Shown piece after piece: positions 5,006 through 61,392 of a stretch of 64,000 bases of DNA. The stretch lies in sequence record MZ234025.1; one strand, given 5' to 3'. Position 1 is the stretch's first letter. Every line of letters begins with the position of its first letter. This stretch comes from Escherichia phage vB_EcoM-172859UKE1. A model generated the notes under the pieces. That model searched no databases, was not told the origin of the DNA, and saw nothing but the letters and a program-made list of their open reading frames with translations. Position numbers and translations under genes: made by a program.

Positions 5006-5785
5006 ATGGCTTTTACAGTTGATATAACTCCTAAAACACCTACTGGAGTTATAGATCAGACTCAGCAGTTTACTGCTACACCCAGTGGTCAAACTGGAGA
5101 TGGACCTATTACATATGCTTGGACTGTAGATGATGTTCCACAAGATGGAGCTGAAGCAACTTTTAGTTATGTACTAAAAGGACCTGCCGGTCAAAAGACT
5201 ATTAAAGTAGTTGCAACAAACCCAGTCCTAGACGCTGAAGCTGAAACAGCAGAAGCTACTACAACTATCACAGTTCAAAATAAGACACAAACGACCACCT
5301 TAGCTGTAACTCCTAATAGCCCTGACGCTGGAGTAATTGGAACAGCTATTGAATTTACTGCTACTTTAGCTTCGCAGCCATCGGGCGCAAACGCTACTTA
5401 TCAATGGTATGTAGATGATTCTCCTGTGGGCGAAGCAACTAACGCTACGTTCAATTACACTCCTGCCGAAAGCGGGGTAAAAAGAATTAAGTGTGTGGCT
5501 CAAGTAACTGCGACAGATTATGATGCACTAAGCGTTACTTCTAATGAAGTATCACTGACTGTTAATAAAAAGACACAGACAACTACTTTGGCAGTAACTC
5601 CCGATAGTCCTTCAGCTGGAGTAATTGGAACCCCAGTTCAATTTACTGCTGCCTTAGCTTCTCAACCAGTTGGAGCGTCTGCTACGTATCAGTGGTATGT
5701 AGATGATTCACAAGTTGGTGGAGAAACTAACTCTACATTTAGCTATACTCCAACTACAAGTGGAGTTAAAAAATTAAATGCGTAG
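5006..5785 (+). CDS. hoc: Hoc outer capsid protein, N-terminal part (Ig-like domains 1-3), ended by a frameshift
   Basis: Tandem Ig-like repeats (TQTTTLAVTP...YQWYVDD...); frame ends at TAG 5783-5785 after an A6 run; continues in another frame (see 5863..6423). Confidence 0.8.
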   Translation: MAFTVDITPKTPTGVIDQTQQFTATPSGQTGDGPITYAWTVDDVPQDGAEATFSYVLKGPAGQKTIKVVATNPVLDAEAETAEATTTITVQNKTQTTTLAVTPNSPDAGVIGTAIEFTATLASQPSGANATYQWYVDDSPVGEATNATFNYTPAESGVKRIKCVAQVTATDYDALSVTSNEVSLTVNKKTQTTTLAVTPDSPSAGVIGTPVQFTAALASQPVGASATYQWYVDDSQVGGETNSTFSYTPTTSGVKKLNA

Positions 5786-5859
5786 CCCAAGTAACCGCGG
5801 CAGATTATGATGCAAAGGAAGTTACTTCTAATGAAGTATCATTAACGGTTAATAAGAAG
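5281..5859 (+). repeat. Tandem direct repeat (2 x ~289 bp) encoding duplicated Hoc Ig-like domains
   Basis: Copy 1 about 5281-5570 and copy 2 about 5571-5859 align at the nucleotide level at most positions (identity not computed). Confidence 0.8.
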
Positions 5860-5862
5860 ACA

Positions 5863-7086: not shown

Positions 7087-8085
7087 ATGTTTAAGAAATA
7101 CAGCAGTCTTGAAAACCACTACAACTCTAAGTTTATTGAAAAACTCTACACTAATGGTTTGACTACTGGTGTTTGGGTAGCACGTGAGAAAATCCATGGG
7201 ACCAACTTCTCGTTAATAATTGAACGTGACAACGTCACATGCGCCAAGCGCACAGGCCCTATTCTTCCAGCAGAAGATTTTTATGGTTATGAAATCGTAC
7301 TCAAGAAGTATGATAAAGCTATTAAAGCCGTTCAGGAATTCATGTACACAGCTCGAGCCGTATCATATCAAGTATTCGGTGAATTCGCTGGTGGTGGAAT
7401 CCAGAAAGGTGTTGACTACGGTGAAAAAGATTTTTATGTGTTCGATATCCTTATCAATACAGAAAGTGGTGATAATACGTATTTGACTGATTACGAAATG
7501 CAAGATTTCTGTAATGAATTCGGTTTTAAAATGGCACCAATGCTTGGTCGTGGCACATTTGATGCTCTTATCATGATTCCAAACGACCTTGATTCCGTCT
7601 TAGCCGCTTATAATGCTACAGCGTCAGAAGACCTTGTCGAAGCAAATAATTGTGTATTTGATGCTAATGTTATTGGCGATAATACGGCAGAAGGTTATGT
7701 TCTGAAGCCTTGTTTCCCTAAATGGCTGCCAAACGGTACTCGTGTAGCTATTAAGTGCAAGAACTCTAAATTCAGTGAAAAGAAAAAGTCTGATAAGCCT
7801 ATTAAAACTCAGGTTCCATTAACCGAAATTGACAAAAACTTGCTTGATGTTCTAGCTTGTTATGTTACATTAAATCGTGTTAATAATGTGATTTCTAAGA
7901 TTGGGACTGTAACGCCAAAAGATTTTGGCAAAGTGATGGGATTGACTGTTCAAGATATTCTGGAAGAAACTTCTCGTGAAGGTATTGTATTAACATCATC
8001 TGATAATCCGAATCTTGTTAAGAAAGAATTAGTCCGAATGGTGCAAGATGTTCTGCGTCCTGCATGGATTGAATTAGTATCATAA
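7087..8085 (+). CDS. rnlB: RNA ligase 2 (Rnl2)
   Basis: 332 aa; matches recalled T4 Rnl2 ([21 protein letters not shown]...[10 protein letters not shown]...RPAWIELVS), lysine-containing KIHGTN motif. Confidence 0.9.
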
Positions 8086-8115: not shown

Positions 8116-9396
8116 TTAGTCTATAATAATTTTAGGCAATTTAACACCGAGTAAAACAGACAAGTCTGAACGTCCTGCCATTTTATCCATGTCCCCACCA
8201 TCAATTATTCTCGCTTCTTTTTCGTCTTTTGCTACTGTGTAAGGATTTGCTGATAAAGCATATCTAACCAATAATCCGATAGACGGTTGCAAGCTTTCTG
8301 GATCAACTACAACTTTAAAAGCACCGACATGTTCCGGGTCATCTAAATCTACTCCTTCAGTGTATGGAGCATAAAAGATTGACCCTACAATTTCTTTTTC
8401 GCCGATATTTTCTACAACACCCACAACAACATAATCTAACGGGCTGTTGGTATCGCAGTAAAGAGGTAATCCATTTGCCAAGAATCCATAAGCATTTTGT
8501 GAAAGATACTTGTCATCTTCTGGCTTATGTTTTAACCAACCAGAAGCAGCAAGAATAGCAGCTGCACGAGCTGAGGCTACACAAAACGTTGCAGTATAAG
8601 TTGTCTCTTTTTGAATGTGTGATACCATTTCACACACCATTCGATATAATGAACGACCTGCTTCTGGAGCGGATGCATAACTCAAGTCAATAAATCCGGT
8701 GTCAGTAATTCCAGTAACTTTATAACGTTTCGATACAGTAATTAAAGACTGAAGAATATCTTTATTAATTTCATCAGCCATTTCAGTAGCAAGCAAATCT
8801 TCTAAGAAGTTAGGGGCATCAAATCCATTAGCTTCCAAATCTTGCGCTAATTCAACCGTGAGGCCAGTTTTAAGTTTACGAGATTTGACTGAAGTTTGCC
8901 ATTTATTAATCTGGAATCTTGCATCAGAAATTTCGCTACCAGAGCTTTCAAATTTGCTTGTTACCGCTGCATCTGAAAATAACCGTACCTTTAAATGAAC
9001 GATTGCAATCTGAAGAGCTAATTCTAGATCACTTTCTTGAATATCTGCAAATGGTGCATCTTCTAACACTTTATAGACGATATTATTATATTTGAAAAAA
9101 TCGCCTTTATTTAGTGTGACTTTTGATTCTTCTGTGAGTTCGGTAATTTTTTCTCGGTCTACATATCCAGCTTCACCCGCATAAGTAGCACCAGTTTTAA
9201 ATGTGAATTCGTTATCCGGGTTAAGATATTTGATACCATAAAAAGCAGCAACAGGTTGATTAGTTCTTTGTGTTGCTACAATGTCAGAATATATTAATTT
9301 AGTCGTAGCGCGAGTCAAAGCAACGAGATTTGGGCGACCAATTGAGTTGCTAGTAGACGTTGTAGATTCACGCAATAATTTTTGGATTTTACTCAT
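8116..9396 (-). CDS. 24: Capsid vertex protein gp24
   Basis: 426 aa; gp23 paralog downstream of gene 23 as in T4. Confidence 0.9.
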   Translation of the reverse strand: MSKIQKLLRESTTSTSNSIGRPNLVALTRATTKLIYSDIVATQRTNQPVAAFYGIKYLNPDNEFTFKTGATYAGEAGYVDREKITELTEESKVTLNKGDFFKYNNIVYKVLEDAPFADIQESDLELALQIAIVHLKVRLFSDAAVTSKFESSGSEISDARFQINKWQTSVKSRKLKTGLTVELAQDLEANGFDAPNFLEDLLATEMADEINKDILQSLITVSKRYKVTGITDTGFIDLSYASAPEAGRSLYRMVCEMVSHIQKETTYTATFCVASARAAAILAASGWLKHKPEDDKYLSQNAYGFLANGLPLYCDTNSPLDYVVVGVVENIGEKEIVGSIFYAPYTEGVDLDDPEHVGAFKVVVDPESLQPSIGLLVRYALSANPYTVAKDEKEARIIDGGDMDKMAGRSDLSVLLGVKLPKIIID

Positions 9397-9423
9397 TGCA
9401 TTTTTTCCTTATGTGATATAGAT

Positions 9424-9431
9424 TATTTATA
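9424..9431 (-). promoter_or_regulatory. T4-type late promoter box TATAAATA (for gene 24)
   Basis: Exact TATAAATA on minus strand about 30 nt upstream of gene 24 ATG. Confidence 0.6.
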
Positions 9432-9437
9432 AAGATT

Positions 9438-9467
9438 GTTTACAACGTATTTGGTATGTGATACTAT
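9438..9467 (+). promoter_or_regulatory. Early sigma70-type promoter (GTTTAC -35, TGaTACTAT -10)
   Basis: GTTTAC at 9438-9443, 18-nt spacer, TACTAT at 9462-9467; same cassette as at 45750-45813. Confidence 0.55.
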
Positions 9468-9503
9468 AGACTTATCAACTACAGAGGAGTAAACAAAATG
9501 ACT
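9462..9503 (+). repeat. 42-bp promoter/RBS cassette, exact copy of 45772..45813
   Basis: tactatagacttatcaactacagaggagtaaacaaaatgact occurs identically at both loci. Confidence 0.85.
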
Positions 9504-9767
9504 AAAGCACGTTTCTTACGAGATACTTTAAAAGTTCTGGAAGCTGAAGCAGTTAAGTTAGTAGAAAAATATGGTGCAAAAGTTAATGGTAATGCCTTCA
9601 ACAAAGTATGGATGAAAGTTGATTCTGAAGCTCGAGCTAAAGGTTATTGGGCCACTGATAAACTTGCATCATTCAAAAACAAAGACGGTTCTCCAGCATA
9701 TGTCCAAGAAGGTATGCCTAATTGGCAAAATATTTTGAAAACTTACATCGAAATTGCACAGAAATAA
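9498..9767 (+). CDS. Hypothetical protein (89 aa) inserted between genes 24 and 23 on the opposite strand
   Basis: ORF with GAGGAG SD; MTKARFLRDTLKVLEAE...; own early-type promoter; no recognisable domain. Confidence 0.65.
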   Translation: MTKARFLRDTLKVLEAEAVKLVEKYGAKVNGNAFNKVWMKVDSEARAKGYWATDKLASFKNKDGSPAYVQEGMPNWQNILKTYIEIAQK

Positions 9768-9777
9768 AACCAAAAAT

Positions 9778-9795
9778 GGGAGACCGAAGTCTCCC
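9778..9795 (-). terminator. Terminator hairpin downstream of gene 23
   Basis: GGGAGAC-cgaa-GTCTCCC hairpin; a T-run follows on the minus strand. Confidence 0.65.
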
Positions 9796-9819
9796 AAAAT
9801 AAGATTTAATCAATTAAGA

Positions 9820-11388
9820 TTAGATGCCTTTTACATATACACGTCTAAAGTAAGCGTTCTTACCAAGGCTGTTCAGGATAGACGGCATACCGGACTGGAT
9901 GCGAGCACCTGGAGCCTGCAGGGAACTTTCAGCAAACGGGTTAACACCGATACCGTAACGAGTTTTAAAGCCCATTACCGGCTGGAAGTTCTTAGGATCG
10001 GAACCACGCAGTGGGGTAAGTGCAACGTAAGGAGCATAGTAAATACCTGCATCCATTTCGTTAGCGCCTTTGTAACCAACGGTGAAGTAATCCTGTTTAG
10101 CATACTGGTCGATGTATACGCGGTATTTACCGCCAAGTACACCGGCAAATACAGACTTAGTAGTGTCGGTATTAAAACCAGAAGCCAGACCCTGTGCAGC
10201 GTAAGAAATACCAGTATCAACTGAAGCCAGTACGTTAACTACGTTACGGGAAGCGATAATGAAGTTACCTTCACCACGACCGGTTTGACGAGCAATTTCA
10301 ACTGCTTCTTTATCAATCTGGAACAACAGAGCTTTAAAGCTTTCACCGGCCCAACGAGCACCACGGATATCAATCGGGTCCTGGAAGTCGAATACACCAG
10401 CTTTAGAACCAACGATATTAGTCATACCAGATTTACCAACCTGAGCGGAGTAGTTAATCCAGTCAACAACTTCACGGTTGATTTCCAGCATAATTTCAGT
10501 AGCAAGAATACCACTCAGTTCAGCATCAGCATCCATACCGTGTACTGCACGGAGGTCTTGTGCCAATTCGATGGAGTAAGCTGCTTTCAGCTGACGAGAT
10601 TTAGCTTCAATAACTTGTTTGTCGATACGGAAGCCCATTTCGTTCCACGGGTTGTCGGTAGAACCATTGAAGCCTTCCTGAAGTTCAGCGATAGAAGTAG
10701 CCATACCTTCAGCGATTTCTACCAGTACACCTGCTTCCATTTGTTTGATAATTTCTGCATCCAGCAATTCTGGGGTAGAAGCCTCAGCGCTAATGGTAAC
10801 AACTTTAGTGGCCTGAAGATAAGTAGAACCAGTTTCAGCGAAGAAGTGATAATAAATGTCGCCGGCTACAGTGGACATACCAGCGGTAACAGGAGCAAAT
10901 GCTTTTGCAGCACCCTGACCAGAGAACATCGCATCTGGAGCATACATCGGATGGAAAGCTTCTTTAGCGTCAGCAGCGATAGGGTCTTTACCATATACTG
11001 CACGGAGAGCAAATACCTGACCGGTAGGGCTGTTCATAGGCTGAACACCACAAATATCAAAAGCGATCAGATTAGGAATAGCACGACGAACCATACCCAT
11101 AACTGCCGGCCCAATTTGGGTTACTGCACCAGAGGTTTGACCTGCTGCGATGTTCTGAGCATTATAACCGTGGTCACCACCAATTTCAGCTTCGGTCAAG
11201 AAAGAACCAAATGCCTGAGCGATTTTCTCGTCTTTATATTCAGGGGATACTTCGAAATCTTTTTCCTGGTTTTCGAAGATTTTAGCGATAATAGCCTGCT
11301 TGCTATTAGCGATTTCCGGCAGGCCTTCACCTTCCAGCAGTTCTTTCCATTTGTCTACGAGCTGAGCTTTAGTTTTGATAGTAGTCAT
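9820..11388 (-). CDS. 23: Major capsid protein gp23
   Basis: 522 aa; matches recalled T4 gp23 over most of its length (MTTIKTKAQL...NAYFRRVYVKGI). Confidence 0.97.
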   Translation of the reverse strand: MTTIKTKAQLVDKWKELLEGEGLPEIANSKQAIIAKIFENQEKDFEVSPEYKDEKIAQAFGSFLTEAEIGGDHGYNAQNIAAGQTSGAVTQIGPAVMGMVRRAIPNLIAFDICGVQPMNSPTGQVFALRAVYGKDPIAADAKEAFHPMYAPDAMFSGQGAAKAFAPVTAGMSTVAGDIYYHFFAETGSTYLQATKVVTISAEASTPELLDAEIIKQMEAGVLVEIAEGMATSIAELQEGFNGSTDNPWNEMGFRIDKQVIEAKSRQLKAAYSIELAQDLRAVHGMDADAELSGILATEIMLEINREVVDWINYSAQVGKSGMTNIVGSKAGVFDFQDPIDIRGARWAGESFKALLFQIDKEAVEIARQTGRGEGNFIIASRNVVNVLASVDTGISYAAQGLASGFNTDTTKSVFAGVLGGKYRVYIDQYAKQDYFTVGYKGANEMDAGIYYAPYVALTPLRGSDPKNFQPVMGFKTRYGIGVNPFAESSLQAPGARIQSGMPSILNSLGKNAYFRRVYVKGI

Positions 11389-41926: not shown

Positions 41927-41960
41927 CATCCTATCAAATAAACAACCTCAAGGAAATAAA

Positions 41961-42248
41961 ATGAAAACTTATCAAGAGTTTATATCACCTATTGCTAACG
42001 TTTCTACTCTGACCGAAGCAACCCTTACTTCCGAAGTTATTAAAGCAAATAAAGGACGTGAGGGTAAACCAATGATTAGTCTGGCTGACGGCGAAGAAGT
42101 AAAAGGTACTGTTTACTTAGGGGATGGATGGTCTGCTAAGAAAGACGGCGCTACTATTGTTATCTCTCCGGCTGAAGAGACCGCACTGTTTAAAGCTAAG
42201 CATATTTCTGTAGCTCAGCTTAAAATTATTGCAAAAACTCTTCTGTAA
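41961..42248 (+). CDS. ipI: Internal protein I-like (capsid-targeted, DNA co-injected)
   Basis: 95 aa (length of T4 IPI precursor); N-terminal capsid targeting sequence MKTYQEFI...LTE; position after 57B. Confidence 0.65.
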   Translation: MKTYQEFISPIANVSTLTEATLTSEVIKANKGREGKPMISLADGEEVKGTVYLGDGWSAKKDGATIVISPAEETALFKAKHISVAQLKIIAKTLL

Positions 42249-42251
42249 GTA

Positions 42252-42281
42252 GTTTACACGCTGATAGGACTATGTTATAGT
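42252..42281 (+). promoter_or_regulatory. Early promoter within palindromic cassette
   Basis: GTTTAC at 42252-42257, 18-nt spacer, TGtTATAGT; lies in the 28-bp palindrome GATAGGACTAtgttatagTAGTCCTATC. Confidence 0.6.
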
Positions 42282-42290
42282 AGTCCTATC
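42263..42290 (+). repeat. 28-bp palindromic promoter element (copy 1 of 4)
   Basis: Identical to 49071..49098 and 61235..61262; one mismatch at 50635..50662; truncated copy at 45981..46000. Confidence 0.85.
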
Positions 42291-42318
42291 AAAACAAATG
42301 AGTAAATGGAGAAATAAA

Positions 42319-45121: not shown

Positions 45122-45126
45122 TAGAA

Positions 45127-45155
45127 TGCCCCTTCCTTATGGTTGGGGCCTTTTG
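45127..45155 (+). terminator. Rho-independent terminator
   Basis: GCCCC...GGGGC hairpin followed by a T-rich run. Confidence 0.6.
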
Positions 45156-45187
45156 GTATCTAGGGCATAAAAATATTTCATAAAGAT

Positions 45188-45216
45188 GTTTACTTCTTCT
45201 AAGGACATGATACTAT
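45188..45216 (+). promoter_or_regulatory. Early promoter
   Basis: GTTTAC at 45188-45193, 17-nt spacer, TACTAT at 45211-45216. Confidence 0.55.
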
Positions 45217-45244
45217 AGACTTATCAACCATAGAGGAAAATGTT

Positions 45245-45748
45245 ATGAGTCTTTACACTGAACTGAATAAAAAATCTGAAGAATCTGCTGAAACTATTTT
45301 TAAAAACGTGCAAAAGCGTATTTTGGAAAAGATGTATGATGCAGCATCTAAAGGTGAAAAATCTTGCCGGTTTCCGATGAGGTGTTCTTCTGATTTATGC
45401 GCAAATACTATTGAATGGCTGGAAAGTGAAGGTCTTACGGTAGAGAAAAACCCGGCGACTTCTATTGACGGCGAATCATATATTAGTATTTCTTGGGATA
45501 AATCAAGGGTAGAAGAGAAAGATGGTGATTGGGTTGTAGATGTTAAAACTTCTGATGGTGGACGTTCTGTTGAAGTTTCGGCTGTAGTTAAAGGTACCCA
45601 CGAACAAAGGACTTGGGGTTGGGGTGGTGAAGAAAAAGAAATTGTTCTTAGTGTGATTGCCAGGTCAACTAGTAATAAAATTGCACAAAGCATCATTGAC
45701 GCTGCAATTGCTGAAGCAGAAAAAATTTGCAAAATTAAAAATAAATGA
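45245..45748 (+). CDS. Hypothetical protein (167 aa)
   Basis: ORF following promoter and GAGGAA SD. Confidence 0.55.
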   Translation: MSLYTELNKKSEESAETIFKNVQKRILEKMYDAASKGEKSCRFPMRCSSDLCANTIEWLESEGLTVEKNPATSIDGESYISISWDKSRVEEKDGDWVVDVKTSDGGRSVEVSAVVKGTHEQRTWGWGGEEKEIVLSVIARSTSNKIAQSIIDAAIAEAEKICKIKNK

Positions 45749-45749
45749 T

Positions 45750-45777
45750 GTACAAACGCCAAGGATGGTGGTACTAT
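45750..45777 (+). promoter_or_regulatory. Early promoter (weaker -35 GTACAA)
   Basis: -10 TACTAT at 45772-45777 inside the 42-bp cassette duplicated at 9462. Confidence 0.45.
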
Positions 45778-45813
45778 AGACTTATCAACTACAGAGGAGT
45801 AAACAAAATGACT
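45772..45813 (+). repeat. 42-bp promoter/RBS cassette, exact copy of 9462..9503
   Basis: Identical sequence including -10, GAGGAG SD and ATG ACT. Confidence 0.85.
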
Positions 45814-45972
45814 ACTTTAATTATTTGGTTCGATGAAAATGAAGAAACATACTGTGTGAATATTGGTGAAAGTCCAATGCCTGAATTTGAATCCTCGGAT
45901 AAAAACTCTGTTGTATCTTGGGCTGAAGGTTATAAAGCAGCTAAAGGTGACGTTGAAATAATTTACATCTAA
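45808..45972 (+). CDS. Hypothetical small protein (54 aa)
   Basis: ATG 45808 after GAGGAG SD within the duplicated cassette; the ORF-track start at 45745 spans the promoter. Confidence 0.5.
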   Translation: MTTLIIWFDENEETYCVNIGESPMPEFESSDKNSVVSWAEGYKAAKGDVEIIYI

Positions 45973-45990
45973 GTAAGTTTATGTTATAGT
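45961..45990 (+). promoter_or_regulatory. Early promoter (truncated palindromic cassette)
   Basis: ATTTAC at 45961-45966, 18-nt spacer, TATAGT at 45985-45990; only the right arm of the palindrome is present. Confidence 0.45.
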
Positions 45991-46018
45991 AGTCCTATCA
46001 AATCAAGAGGAAAACAAA

Positions 46019-46246
46019 ATGGCTAAAGTTAGTATTGATGTCGTTGATTATGAATACACAGAAGAAGTTATTCGCAACCGCCACCCTGAAGTTCGTATCG
46101 ATTCAGTCCAAGATTCCAAGTTCTGGACAACTGAGCTTAATCTGAGTGGTCCTTATGAAGCTGTTAAGAAGTTCATGGTTGAAGAATACTGCGAAGGCAT
46201 GCACCCCGAAGACGCCAAGTTTTATGTCAATTTGATTAAAAAATAA
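46019..46246 (+). CDS. Hypothetical protein (75 aa)
   Basis: ORF after AGAGGAAAA SD. Confidence 0.5.
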   Translation: MAKVSIDVVDYEYTEEVIRNRHPEVRIDSVQDSKFWTTELNLSGPYEAVKKFMVEEYCEGMHPEDAKFYVNLIKK

Positions 46247-49055: not shown

Positions 49056-49059
49056 AACA

Positions 49060-49089
49060 GTTTACAATAAGATAGGACTATGTTATAGT
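49060..49089 (+). promoter_or_regulatory. Early promoter within palindromic cassette
   Basis: GTTTAC at 49060-49065, TGtTATAGT -10; exact 28-bp palindrome copy at 49071-49098. Confidence 0.6.
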
Positions 49090-49117
49090 AGTCCTATCAA
49101 ATTAAATGGAGTCCGCA

Positions 49118-49357
49118 ATGATTTATTACGAAAGTATCGGAACCAAAGTGATTGGTAAAACCATTACTCGTGAAAAGTTTGCAAAGATATTCGATATGCG
49201 TTATAAAAAATCTGAACACAAAGGCATCCGATTCGAAGATGCGCACTGTACAATTTGCCCTTATAATGAAGACATAAATGGTACAATCGTTCCATTGGTA
49301 GAGGCTTCACATGATGACCTCTGGGATGAATATAATATCGCATGTCGTGAAATTTAA
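49118..49357 (+). CDS. Hypothetical protein (79 aa)
   Basis: ATG 49118 after GGAG; the ATG at 49106 lies within the conserved AAATGGAG cassette. Confidence 0.5.
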   Translation: MIYYESIGTKVIGKTITREKFAKIFDMRYKKSEHKGIRFEDAHCTICPYNEDINGTIVPLVEASHDDLWDEYNIACREI

Positions 49358-50422: not shown

Positions 50423-50623
50423 ATGACTACTTTGAATAAACGTTTCGGTAAAGCTAAACCTGGTTGTGCAGCAGAACGTCGTTATGTTTTCGCTCAGTTA
50501 GAAGATGTAGAGTATCAGATTAATCAAGTTCACATTACTGGTATCGAGCCTATGTGTGGCCTTGAAGCTCTTCGTGAAGTTCGTGATGGGTATCGTCGTG
50601 ACATCGAAGAAATGTCAAAATAA
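50423..50623 (+). CDS. Hypothetical small protein (66 aa)
   Basis: ATG 50423 after GGAG within the conserved RBS cassette. Confidence 0.5.
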   Translation: MTTLNKRFGKAKPGCAAERRYVFAQLEDVEYQINQVHITGIEPMCGLEALREVRDGYRRDIEEMSK

Positions 50624-50624
50624 G

Positions 50625-50653
50625 TGTACAAACTGATAGGGCTATGTTATAGT
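50625..50653 (+). promoter_or_regulatory. Early promoter within palindromic cassette
   Basis: GTGTAC -35, TATAGT -10; 28-bp palindrome with one mismatch at 50635-50662. Confidence 0.55.
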
Positions 50654-50679
50654 AGTCCTATCAACTTGAGGAGAATATT

Positions 50680-50985
50680 ATGAAATTAACAGAAACCAAC
50701 CGAATCGGTCTTTTTACAATATTTGCATCGCTTTTTTACGCAGCTCTTTCTGTTGCAGTATTACAAAAGGCTTACGATATGGATGGTGTTCCTGGTTGTA
50801 TATTTTTATCACCGTTTTTATTATTCGTCGGAGCTTTGATATTATATGCCACGTCCGGTTTAGACCATAATGTCTGGGTCAATTATAAACGTAAATTGTC
50901 CGAAGAAGAACACGCAGAAGCTCGTAAAAAAGCTATTGAATCTACCAATCTAGAAAATTTCATTAAAGAATGTCGAGGAAAATAA
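50680..50985 (+). CDS. Membrane protein, ENFIKECR family
   Basis: 101 aa; two hydrophobic segments; C-terminus ...STNLENFIKECRGK. Confidence 0.55.
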   Translation: MKLTETNRIGLFTIFASLFYAALSVAVLQKAYDMDGVPGCIFLSPFLLFVGALILYATSGLDHNVWVNYKRKLSEEEHAEARKKAIESTNLENFIKECRGK

Positions 50986-53704: not shown

Positions 53705-54118
53705 ATGACCCGTATCAATTTAACACTTGTTTCTGAACTGGCCGACCAACATCTTATGGCTGAGTATCGTGAATTACCTCGTGTATTCGGTGCAGTCCGT
53801 AAACATGTCCAAAACGGTAAACGTGTAAAAGATTTTAAAATCTCTCCAACATTTATCTTAGGCACAGGTCACGTAACATTCTTTTACGACAAACTCGAAT
53901 TTTTACGTTTACGACAAATCGAGCTAATCGCTGAATGTTTGAAACGTGGTTTCAAAATCAAGGACACGACAGTCCAGGATATTTCCGACATCCCTGCCGA
54001 ATTTCGTAATAATTATGTCCCGTCCGAAGCGTCCATTGCGATAAGTCAAGCACGCTTAGATGAAAAAATTGCTCAACGTCCGACTTGGTACAAATACTAT
54101 GGTAAATCAATTTACTAA
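53705..54118 (+). CDS. denV: Endonuclease V (pyrimidine dimer DNA glycosylase) DenV
   Basis: 137 aa from ATG 53705; matches recalled T4 endonuclease V ([34 protein letters not shown]...). Confidence 0.95.
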
Positions 54119-54124
54119 GGAAAA

Positions 54125-54241
54125 ATGAAAATGTATCAAGAATTTATCATTGAAGCAGATGCCAAAGGTCCTAAAGTAGATGTTGACGATATTGGATACG
54201 ATTTTAACAACTTCGGAATTATTTCTGGCGGTAAAGCTTAA
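54125..54241 (+). CDS. Mini internal-protein-like peptide with CTS (38 aa)
   Basis: MKMYQEFIIEADAKG...; AAGGAAAA SD; below the ORF-track cutoff. Confidence 0.4.
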   Translation: MKMYQEFIIEADAKGPKVDVDDIGYDFNNFGIISGGKA

Positions 54242-54274: not shown

Positions 54275-54304
54275 TACTCTATCAAAACAAACAAGGAAAC
54301 AAAA

Positions 54305-54619
54305 ATGAAAACGTATAAAGAATTTATTGCAGAATCCGCCAACCAACGCGTTGAAGGCGGTTATATTTGGATTGAACAAGTTGAACCACCGAGCCGCACT
54401 TCTACAGGTAAATGGAAAATTACTGTTGATGGTCCTGGTGGTAAACGTAGGACCCTTAAAGAAATTAATGGGTACTATGAAGAAGCTCTTTCGGATGCAG
54501 GAACTTACATGATGCAAATCATGATTAAAAACCCTGAAAACCGTTTTGCAGCTAAAGTCTTCCGTCGCATCGGTAATAAACTTTATGATGCATACTCTAA
54601 AAACTTCCCTAAAGAATAA
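54305..54619 (+). CDS. Internal-protein-like protein with CTS (104 aa)
   Basis: N-terminus MKTYKEFIAE. Confidence 0.6.
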   Translation: MKTYKEFIAESANQRVEGGYIWIEQVEPPSRTSTGKWKITVDGPGGKRRTLKEINGYYEEALSDAGTYMMQIMIKNPENRFAAKVFRRIGNKLYDAYSKNFPKE

Positions 54620-54644
54620 CATAAATTAAAACAATAGGAACAAA

Positions 54645-54974
54645 ATGAAAACGTATCAAGAGTTTATCACTGAAGTTACATTATCTGCGGAACAGAAAGC
54701 TGCTATCGAAGAAGGTAAAAATCCCAAAGTAACATATAAAGTAAATAGTAAAGGCGTTTTTGATGGTTTGGTTCAAGACCCTGAATTGAAAAAAGCTCTT
54801 TCTAAAACTAATGCGTACTTTGCTCCTAAATTTAACACAGCCGGTGTACTTATTGGATTGGATGTATTCAACTCTAAAGGTGTTCTATCTAGTGCCTTTG
54901 GTTATGCCGCTAACAAAATTACCAAAGCTGCATGGGAATCCAATACCAAACAAGCTCAAAAGCCTAGAGTATAA
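54645..54974 (+). CDS. Internal-protein-like protein with CTS (109 aa)
   Basis: N-terminus MKTYQEFITE. Confidence 0.6.
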   Translation: MKTYQEFITEVTLSAEQKAAIEEGKNPKVTYKVNSKGVFDGLVQDPELKKALSKTNAYFAPKFNTAGVLIGLDVFNSKGVLSSAFGYAANKITKAAWESNTKQAQKPRV

Positions 54975-61014: not shown

Positions 61015-61224
61015 ATGCTTTACGATTATACTGGAAAATCTGAAGACGGTGTACTTGAACTTTTACCTGAAAGCGCTGAAGATGACGATATGACGACGGT
61101 GATGTTTTGTAAAAATGGCCCTGGGGATAAGGGATGGATTTATCTTCGTCAAGAAAATGACTTAATTGTTTTGGACCCTAAACAAGTTGAAGAACTTTAT
61201 CAACATTTAAAACACAATCGGTAG
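61015..61224 (+). CDS. Hypothetical acidic protein (69 aa)
   Basis: ATG 61015 after GAGGA SD. Confidence 0.45.
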   Translation: MLYDYTGKSEDGVLELLPESAEDDDMTTVMFCKNGPGDKGWIYLRQENDLIVLDPKQVEELYQHLKHNR

Positions 61225-61253
61225 TTTACAACTTGATAGGACTATGTTATAGT
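61224..61253 (+). promoter_or_regulatory. Early promoter within palindromic cassette
   Basis: GTTTAC at 61224-61229, TGtTATAGT -10; exact 28-bp palindrome copy at 61235-61262. Confidence 0.6.
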
Positions 61254-61281
61254 AGTCCTATCAAAACGAACGGAGAACAAA

Positions 61282-61392
61282 ATGAAACTTTTGCTTATCG
61301 CTTATGTTGTAGTACAATACAATTATCCGATGTTTACTTATAACATGGTAAACGGCATAGTGAATCTTATTGAAACGAGTATGGTAAAATGA
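61282..61392 (+). CDS. Small hydrophobic peptide (36 aa)
   Basis: MKLLLIAYVVVQYNYPMF...; CGGAG SD; ATGA-coupled to the next ORF. Confidence 0.35.
   Translation: MKLLLIAYVVVQYNYPMFTYNMVNGIVNLIETSMVK

Follow-up and report, generated by a model that had tools for sequence, protein, structure and literature searches.

How does a small gene come to lie, on the opposite strand, between the two capsid shell genes of a T4-type phage, and what kind of gene is it? We addressed this question in a stretch of 64,000 nucleotides of Escherichia phage vB_EcoM-172859UKE1 (MZ234025.1), referred to below as the window, in which an 89-aa ORF occupies the intergenic region (the slot) between genes 23 and 24 and shares its leader with a second locus of the same window. 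An initial annotation had proposed that the ORF was inserted together with this duplicated promoter cassette. Our analysis leads to a different picture: the slot probably holds an old, resident and self-contained early-gene cassette, of which the leader was converted and the payload was exchanged by recombination in its regulatory ends.

Organisation of the gene 23-24 slot

With 99.5-100% identity, the region matches genomes of Mosigvirus, a group of RB69-like coliphages of the T4 type that includes mar005P1, PhAPEC2 and JS09. The gp24 encoded in the window shares 95% amino acid identity with T4 gp24. The ORF list and the flanking genes confirmed the position and strand of the 89-aa ORF, and a hairpin and a late promoter motif were found on its two sides, as previously described. 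The features are:

7087-8085, plus strand: rnlB
8116-9396, minus strand: gene 24 for the capsid vertex protein, which borders the slot on the left (ORF list; PhAPEC2 annotation)
9424-9431, minus strand: gene 24 late promoter TATAAATA (reverse complement of tatttata), recognised in the sequence by the late-promoter consensus of PMC1524935
9438-9467, plus strand: early promoter with -35 GTTTACA (9438-9444), a 17-nt spacer, TGn (TGA) and -10 TACTAT (9462-9467)
9462-9504, plus strand: leader block of -10, 5'UTR, Shine-Dalgarno (SD) sequence, ATG and four further nucleotides, exactly equal to 45772-45814
9498-9767, plus strand: 89-aa ORF with ATG start, RB69ORF188c / phrog_6003 family (ORF list, phrog_6003 match)
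9777-9796, minus strand: gene 23 terminator hairpin GGGAGAC-UUCG-GUCUCCC with a C(UUCG)G loop and a T-run on the minus strand only
9820-11388, minus strand: gene 23 for the major capsid protein, which borders the slot on the right (ORF list, annotation)

The two promoters stand back-to-back. Only 6 bp separate the late promoter of gene 24 from the early -35 element, and the A/T-rich late promoter lies at the place expected for an UP element of the divergent early promoter. Judged by the consensus for T4-type early promoters (PMC1524935, PMC4122927), the site at 9438-9467 has the expected A/T-rich upstream sequence (9415-9437) and a GAGGAG SD sequence ahead of the ORF, located at 9484-9489 and thus 8 nt before the ATG (9498-9500). 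The pattern KTKTACA-N17-TAYTATAG, searched with up to two mismatches, has 10 matches in the window, each of them on the plus strand, compared to 2.0 +/- 1.5 in shuffled sequences, none of which (0/100) reached 10. The slot promoter (GTTTACA-N17-TACTAT) matches this pattern without a mismatch and therefore belongs to the early-promoter family of the phage, in agreement with the early-type promoter assigned initially.

Folding against shuffled sequences gave no indication of structure in the 5'UTR (z = 0.06). The ORF ends ahead of the gene 23 terminator hairpin, for which folding yielded -13.5 and -16.1 kcal/mol (z about -4.5 and -4.1); the value of -13.5 belongs to the plus strand, which forms the same stem without a U-tract. 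The hairpin constitutes the right homology arm of the cassette and is identical in the phages LF82-9, VR5 and 04086.

Together, these elements form a complete unit of early promoter, unstructured leader with a strong SD sequence, 89-aa ORF and gene 23 terminator hairpin. Going by the promoter consensus, host sigma-70 RNA polymerase would start near 9474 early in infection, and a small basic protein would be expressed; a literature search found no Mosigvirus transcriptome. As no U-tract follows the hairpin on the plus strand, transcripts probably continue past it as antisense RNA to gene 23.

Family, age and selection of the 89-aa gene

The ORF carries the annotation 'similar to RB69ORF188c'. 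Its match to phrog_6003 is full-length (E = 2.1e-45), with residues 1-89 aligned to positions 1-90 of the 90-position profile, and its product is 100% identical to the PhAPEC2 protein. RB69ORF188c/189c, VR7 gp190 and phrog_6003, all annotated as hypothetical proteins, represent the same family at the same position. A tblastn search detected the family in 239 phage records, about 120 of them with at least 80% identity and 119 with less than 60%; among the latter, sampled copies showed 31-38% identity. Slot and orientation are the same for divergent copies in Gaprivervirus VR20 and the Dhakaviruses VR5 and 04086, and also in PhAPEC2, and metagenomic copies with 61%, 70% and 34% identity likewise lie between genes 23 and 24. 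Overall, syntenic homologs span 30-71% amino acid identity across at least three genera plus metagenomic lineages, and two deeply divergent alleles (about 31% identity) coexist within Mosigvirus itself. Six pairwise comparisons gave dN/dS values of 0.07-0.12, which indicates purifying selection. The residues M1, K3, F6, L21, N30-G31-N32-A33, N35, A45, W51 and Q70 are invariant in the family.

Intact in the window, the gene is disrupted in the RB69 reference (NC_004928; L045 6211-6633), where a +1 and a -1 indel split it into ORF188c (41 aa) and ORF189c (29 aa) and where it also carries a cluster of substitutions. This state reflects either a pseudogene of the laboratory strain or old sequencing errors. 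The gene is split in phage mogra as well, and the disruption in both phages marks it as dispensable. At the level of sequence comparison, the slot ORF is thus an old, selected and dispensable accessory gene.

An exhaustive profile search of 1.8 billion representatives returned about eight true family members, two of which lie in contigs that are not T4-like (P0021 and P0023; L041 3001-3264 and L042 3001-3255). One of these contigs has only short stretches (~80-90 nt) in common with Erwinia phages of ~84-85 kb, which we take to be Ounavirinae-like. The second contig has its relatives among 42-kb Serratia siphoviruses, and here the family gene adjoins a gene for a GpJ-like tail protein. Three further candidates were rejected: in P0022 and P0024, both Big_2/Ig repeat proteins, the match was spread over numerous weak stretches, and P0020 appears to be a chimeric fragment containing part of a family sequence.

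States of the slot across T4-like phages

We compared the gene 23-24 region in T4-like genera sampled from a phage collection and in IMG/VR loci; a gp24-profile search of IMG/VR had yielded 19 loci, mostly close relatives. The slot is polymorphic:

Empty, 77-120 bp with late promoter and terminator: Tequatrovirus RB27, Gelderlandvirus STP4-a, Jiaodavirus pKp20, Pseudotevenvirus Miller, Hadassahvirus Minot and the IMG/VR loci L016, L024 and L025
ORF only: the window, VR5, VR20 and JS98
ORF with a segD-like GIY-YIG gene starting 3 nt downstream: 04086, IME341, LF82-9 and ATK47
segD only: T4, Yersinia phage MHG19 and L023
Unrelated ORFs on the same strand as genes 23 and 24: 44RR and Krischvirus Makalu

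This variation, together with the clean cassette swaps described below, supports the earlier view of the position as a hotspot, and the homing endonuclease gene that it mentioned for T4 is indeed there: segD has the position and orientation of the slot ORF. The early -35 element beside the gene 24 late promoter belongs to a junction, TATTTATAAAGnT(T)GTTTACA, that is common to all occupied opposite-strand slots (T4, VR5, VR20, MHG19), and is therefore ancestral to the occupied slot, whatever the payload. The ends of the cassette are defined by the empty slot of L025, which reads TATTTATAAAG|CTACAGAAACAAGAATGGGAGACC and equals the VR5 slot minus exactly the segment from the -35 element to the ORF stop. 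In the 'empty' slots of STP4-a (L031 2621-2722) and L024, TTGTTTTACA is retained beside the gene 24 late promoter. It may represent a remnant of the early -35 element after loss of the cassette.

Origin of the duplicated leader

Recombination between promoter cassettes termed PeSLs (promoter-early stem-loop) has been described in T4-type phages (Arbiol et al. 2010, PMC2839356; Comeau et al. 2014, PMC4122927). The initial annotation had taken a 42-bp promoter/RBS cassette, shared between the slot and the accessory region, as a sign of cassette-mediated insertion. The duplicate itself was recovered; its exact length is 43 nt (47 nt with one mismatch), and the -35 element lies outside of it. No exact repeat in the window is longer, and its chance expectation is about 1e-17 (by arithmetic). 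Most other long exact repeats are early-promoter cassettes too, and blocks of early promoter, SD sequence and ATG recur ahead of small ORFs (repeat families D1, D3, D4 and D5). The loci related to the slot leader are:

45208-45228, plus strand: third, partial block of -10 and initially transcribed sequence, TGATACTATAGACTTATCAAC, 21 nt exactly shared with 9459-9479 (family D4)
45748-45814, plus strand: cassette A, early promoter ATGTACA-N17-TACTAT with the identical leader, driving the RB69ORF145c homolog
45808-45972, plus strand: 54-aa ORF, RB69ORF145c / phrog_5461, in the e.8-frd.3 accessory region, sharing its leader with the slot gene

The partial copy lies downstream of a stem-loop (45126-45159), which results in a full PeSL-like arrangement (45126-45247; families D7 and D4).

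In the comparison of the slot with cassette A, the -35 element and the spacer are wholly different and identity begins at the -10 element. The -35 element, spacer, -10 element, TATAGACTTATCAA and ATGACTA of cassette A are also found ahead of RB14ncORF134c of T-even phages, which indicates that the block is native to ORF145c. RB69-type slot ORFs of other lineages have unrelated leaders, and the -35 element and spacer of the slot are conserved with T4, VR5, VR20 and MHG19. Because the -35 element is ancestral to the slot and only the half from -10 to ATG equals the 45.8-kb locus, the duplicate most likely reflects conversion of a leader and not delivery of a gene. The simplest and most likely reading is that the ORF145c leader was copied into the slot by gene conversion early in Mosigvirus history. 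The outgroups suggest the direction from cassette A to the slot, and overwriting of the -10-to-ATG leader by the RB69ORF145c cassette would account for the 43-47-nt identity.

The leader block is unchanged in the window, PhAPEC2 and JS09, and three private changes occur only in the decayed slot copy of RB69. The 47-nt identity is nearly fixed among Mosigviruses; it could reflect one old duplication held by selection instead of ongoing conversion. PhAPEC2 has no ORF145c, and its cassette A is fused to frd.3 at GAGGAG/AAACAAAATG (window 45748-46021; PhAPEC2 locus 800-905). Judging from this junction, the loss is a deletion between two adjacent early-promoter cassettes.

A second early-promoter family occurs in the window at 42251-42313, 45960-46022, 49059-49121, 50623-50685 and 61223-61285. 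It is characterised by an inverted repeat across the spacer and the -10 element (GATAGGACTA / TAGTCCTATC), perfect over 10 bp in three copies and degenerate in two. As only the 3' arm would be transcribed, the repeat looks like a DNA-level motif (operator or recombination motif) and not like an RNA hairpin.

Exchange of the payload and association with segD

Exchange of the payload is visible in the phages LF82-9 and ATK47, which have a Mosigvirus backbone (94.6% and 92.4% nucleotide identity to the window in genes 24 and 23, respectively). From gene 24 through the promoter and leader up to GAGGAG, their intergenic sequence agrees with the window at 100% of positions, and then switches to the Dhakavirus sequence ATTAAAAATGAAC... 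The ORF that follows shares 54% nucleotide identity with the window and 89-94% with the Dhakaviruses VR5 and 04086, and the segD homolog next to it shows 57% amino acid identity to T4 SegD. Gene 23 is window-like again (94-100%) from its stop codon, and gene 24 is 99% window-like from its start. These junctions delimit the exchanged piece by the SD sequence on the left and the terminator hairpin region on the right. A conversion tract reaching into gene 23 or gene 24 of LF82-9 was considered and discarded, as both genes keep window-like sequence as far as the edges of the slot. Whole payloads would thus pass from one phage genus to another, the left crossover lying at the SD sequence and the right one at the terminator hairpin or after it.

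Two further observations concern the head genes themselves. Within gene 23, the window and LF82-9 (L006) share only 64-67% identity over a patch of about 200 nt (about 10720-10920), compared to 91-100% in the remainder, which suggests a separately exchanged segment within the major capsid gene. At 5270-5862, a Hoc-like head decoration gene contains units of about 288 nt repeated in tandem (families D2 and D8; 73-82% identity) that correspond to the repeated Ig-like domains of the Hoc-like protein.

The segD type of LF82-9 is present at 95% identity or more in 31 records. In T4, segD is preceded by TTTACA-N17-(TGA)TATTAT beside the gene 24 late promoter (NC_000866; L005 7233-7300, minus strand). 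A review from 2010 stated that no segD-specific promoter was identifiable (PMC2988022); the motif found here suggests that T4 segD stands behind an early-type promoter orthologous to that of the window. GIY-YIG homing endonuclease genes of the segD family would land directly past the ORF stop and probably drive some of the swaps by co-conversion. This driving role is uncertain, since, according to Sokolov 2018 (as cited in PMC10448857), T4 SegD does not promote homing of the gene that encodes it.

Genes resembling segD (46-53% amino acid identity over ~77% of the protein) also occur in T4-like phages of Klebsiella, Cronobacter and Enterobacter. In the one record that was checked, phiKp_19 (LC768482), such a gene (173861-174370) lies directly downstream of gene 23 (173356-173772) on the same strand. 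The 3' flank of gene 23 may therefore be a recurrent landing site for endonucleases.

Predicted structure and function of the slot protein

AlphaFold2, run with a 15-sequence alignment, predicted a fold of helix, helix, beta-hairpin and helix with high confidence (pLDDT 93, pTM 0.79), and a family member with 31% identity in BFVD has the same predicted fold (TM 0.85). The protein is small and basic, with a net charge of about +6 by residue count. The initial statement that it contains no recognisable domain agrees with the Pfam search, in which nothing exceeded the threshold (best hit DUF4859 with 17.9 bits, cut-off 22.6). PADLOC gave no match, the best hit of a profile search against the PDB (E 0.025) was judged to be noise, and a word-indexed protein search as well as the exhaustive search of the 1.8 billion representatives returned only its own family. 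Neither by fold nor by sequence was a relative of known function detected in these searches. A GIY-YIG or HNH nuclease domain was likewise absent from the ORF in Pfam and PADLOC; its neighbour in LF82-9 matches homing endonuclease models (1.8e-22). The literature yielded nothing on ORF188c except name collisions with the ORF188c of other phages.

Our best guess is that the protein is an early effector directed at the host or its defence, which binds a macromolecule and is neither an enzyme nor a capsid component. Its charge of +6, small size, early promoter, dispensability and mobility across phage families favour such an accessory binder over a role in the capsid.

Comparison with known systems

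The slot resembles a PeSL in several respects. It combines a conserved block of early promoter, SD sequence and ATG, which is repeated in the genome ahead of small ORFs of unknown function, with ORF replacement at a junction inside this block (at the SD sequence in LF82-9 and ATK47), and the deletion of ORF145c in PhAPEC2 at GAGGAG/AAACAAAATG falls into the block as well. PeSL crossovers were mapped between the -10 element and the SD/ATG and yield deletions, insertions and replacements (PMC2839356, PMC4122927). The slot promoter also fits the promoter form TTTACW-N17-TAYWAT reported for T4/PST (PMC4122927). In contrast to a PeSL, no stem-loop was found just upstream of the -35 element in the slot (9432-9480 against shuffled sequences, z = 0.18) or in cassette A; the stem-loop of the slot is the gene 23 terminator at the 3' end of the cassette, and the gene 24 leader and late promoter lie upstream. 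Moreover, the slot is located inside the conserved virion module, where PeSLs are reported to be rare (PMC4122927). Excised mini-circles, which inverse PCR can reveal, are an experimental hallmark of PeSLs (PMC2839356).

The locus of T4 segD, a free-standing GIY-YIG gene between genes 23 and 24 that has been discussed in the context of homing-endonuclease co-conversion (Edgell et al. 2010, PMC2988022), shares with the window the slot, the opposite-strand orientation, the junction of late promoter and TTTACA and the type of gene 23 terminator hairpin. A segD homolog lies 3 nt past the ORF stop in 04086, IME341, LF82-9 and ATK47. The two loci differ in that the window has no endonuclease gene and T4 no 89-aa ORF.

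A third system is the shuffling of the T4 internal-protein (IP) locus (Repoila et al. 1994, as cited in PMC4122927). According to this secondary account, small non-essential genes are also swapped there as modules through conserved flanking regulatory or leader sequences, but the IP genes share a coding N-terminus, the capsid-targeting sequence, and their products are packaged. The slot ORF has no more than 5 nucleotides of coding sequence (ATGAC + TA) in common with its partner and has no targeting signal. It starts with MTKARFLRDTLK, and the IP-type N-terminus (MKTYQEFIAE-like, with a gp21 cleavage site) is absent.

Elsewhere in the window, N-termini of the type MKTY(Q/K)EFI are encoded at four ORF starts (41945-41990, 54109-54154, 54289-54334 and 54629-54674; family D6). 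These N-termini resemble the T4 IP capsid-targeting sequence, and the ORFs probably constitute the shuffled internal-protein locus.

Alternative explanations

Three other explanations of the slot were weighed. The recent insertion favoured by the initial annotation, in which the ORF would have arrived with the duplicated promoter/RBS block, for instance by integration of a PeSL mini-circle, could draw on the many T4-like genera with an empty slot, on the resemblance of L025 to a VR5 slot that lacks exactly the segment from -35 to the ORF stop, and on the documented integration of a mini-circle in RB49/phi1 (PMC2839356). However, the ORF is syntenic across genera at 30-71% amino acid identity, each time with a different leader, and must therefore predate the shared 43-nt block. 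The -35 half is ancestral to the slot and lies outside the duplicate, and neither a duplicated stem-loop nor a second cassette flanks the ORF. Insertion on a recent time scale is thus largely refuted, and we regard this explanation as unlikely.

It may also be asked whether the functional unit is the early promoter together with an antisense, 'anti-late' RNA that damps premature expression of the capsid genes, with the coding payload being incidental. The junction of the two promoters is kept with the ORF, with ORF and segD or with segD alone, the plus-strand hairpin has no U-tract in the window and in T4, and the disrupted ORFs of RB69 and mogra retain the promoter region. On the other hand, the protein is under strong purifying selection (dN/dS 0.07-0.12) and has a confidently predicted, conserved fold, many T4-like genera have no promoter at this site, and read-through is not conserved, since VR20 has a T-run after the hairpin when read in the direction of the ORF. 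We consider a primarily regulatory role of the slot improbable. A capsid-related factor acting with gp23 and gp24, such as an internal protein or an assembly helper, appears highly improbable. The conserved position between two capsid shell genes in three genera, a weak match to the PHROG family 'internal virion protein' (phrog_8765, E = 0.09) and the residues L-V-E at positions 21-23, which in our own reading of the alignment resemble a gp21 cleavage site, could point in this direction. Yet the gene lies on the opposite strand behind an early and not a late promoter, its product has no T4 IP capsid-targeting N-terminus, E23 is not conserved, distant homologs occur in unrelated phages away from capsid genes, and the slot is empty or contains segD only in many phages with near-identical gp23 and gp24. 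The reading of the slot as an old resident cassette with a converted leader and an exchangeable payload remains the one we prefer.

It may be speculated further that the phrog_6003 protein is an early effector with a new fold that moves between T4-like myoviruses, an Ounavirinae-like phage and a 42-kb siphovirus, and that it targets host defence or takeover or modulates cleavage by the adjoining segD-type endonucleases. This is a tentative proposal that we ourselves consider rather doubtful. If it were true, the two Mosigvirus alleles with ~31% identity would reflect an arms race and not neutral hitch-hiking.

Significance

The mechanisms that emerge here, PeSL shuffling and the traffic of homing endonucleases, have been described before and leave the picture of T4-type genome evolution unchanged. 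The slot provides an example, at the level of coordinates, of modular exchange within an otherwise conserved T4 head-gene block, in which crossovers fall at the Shine-Dalgarno sequence and the terminator hairpin and in which one slot cycles through four states: empty, ORF only, ORF with homing endonuclease, and endonuclease only. The residual novelty lies in the uncharacterised, well-folded protein family. As a small and selected family without a known relative, phrog_6003 is a candidate for functional screens.
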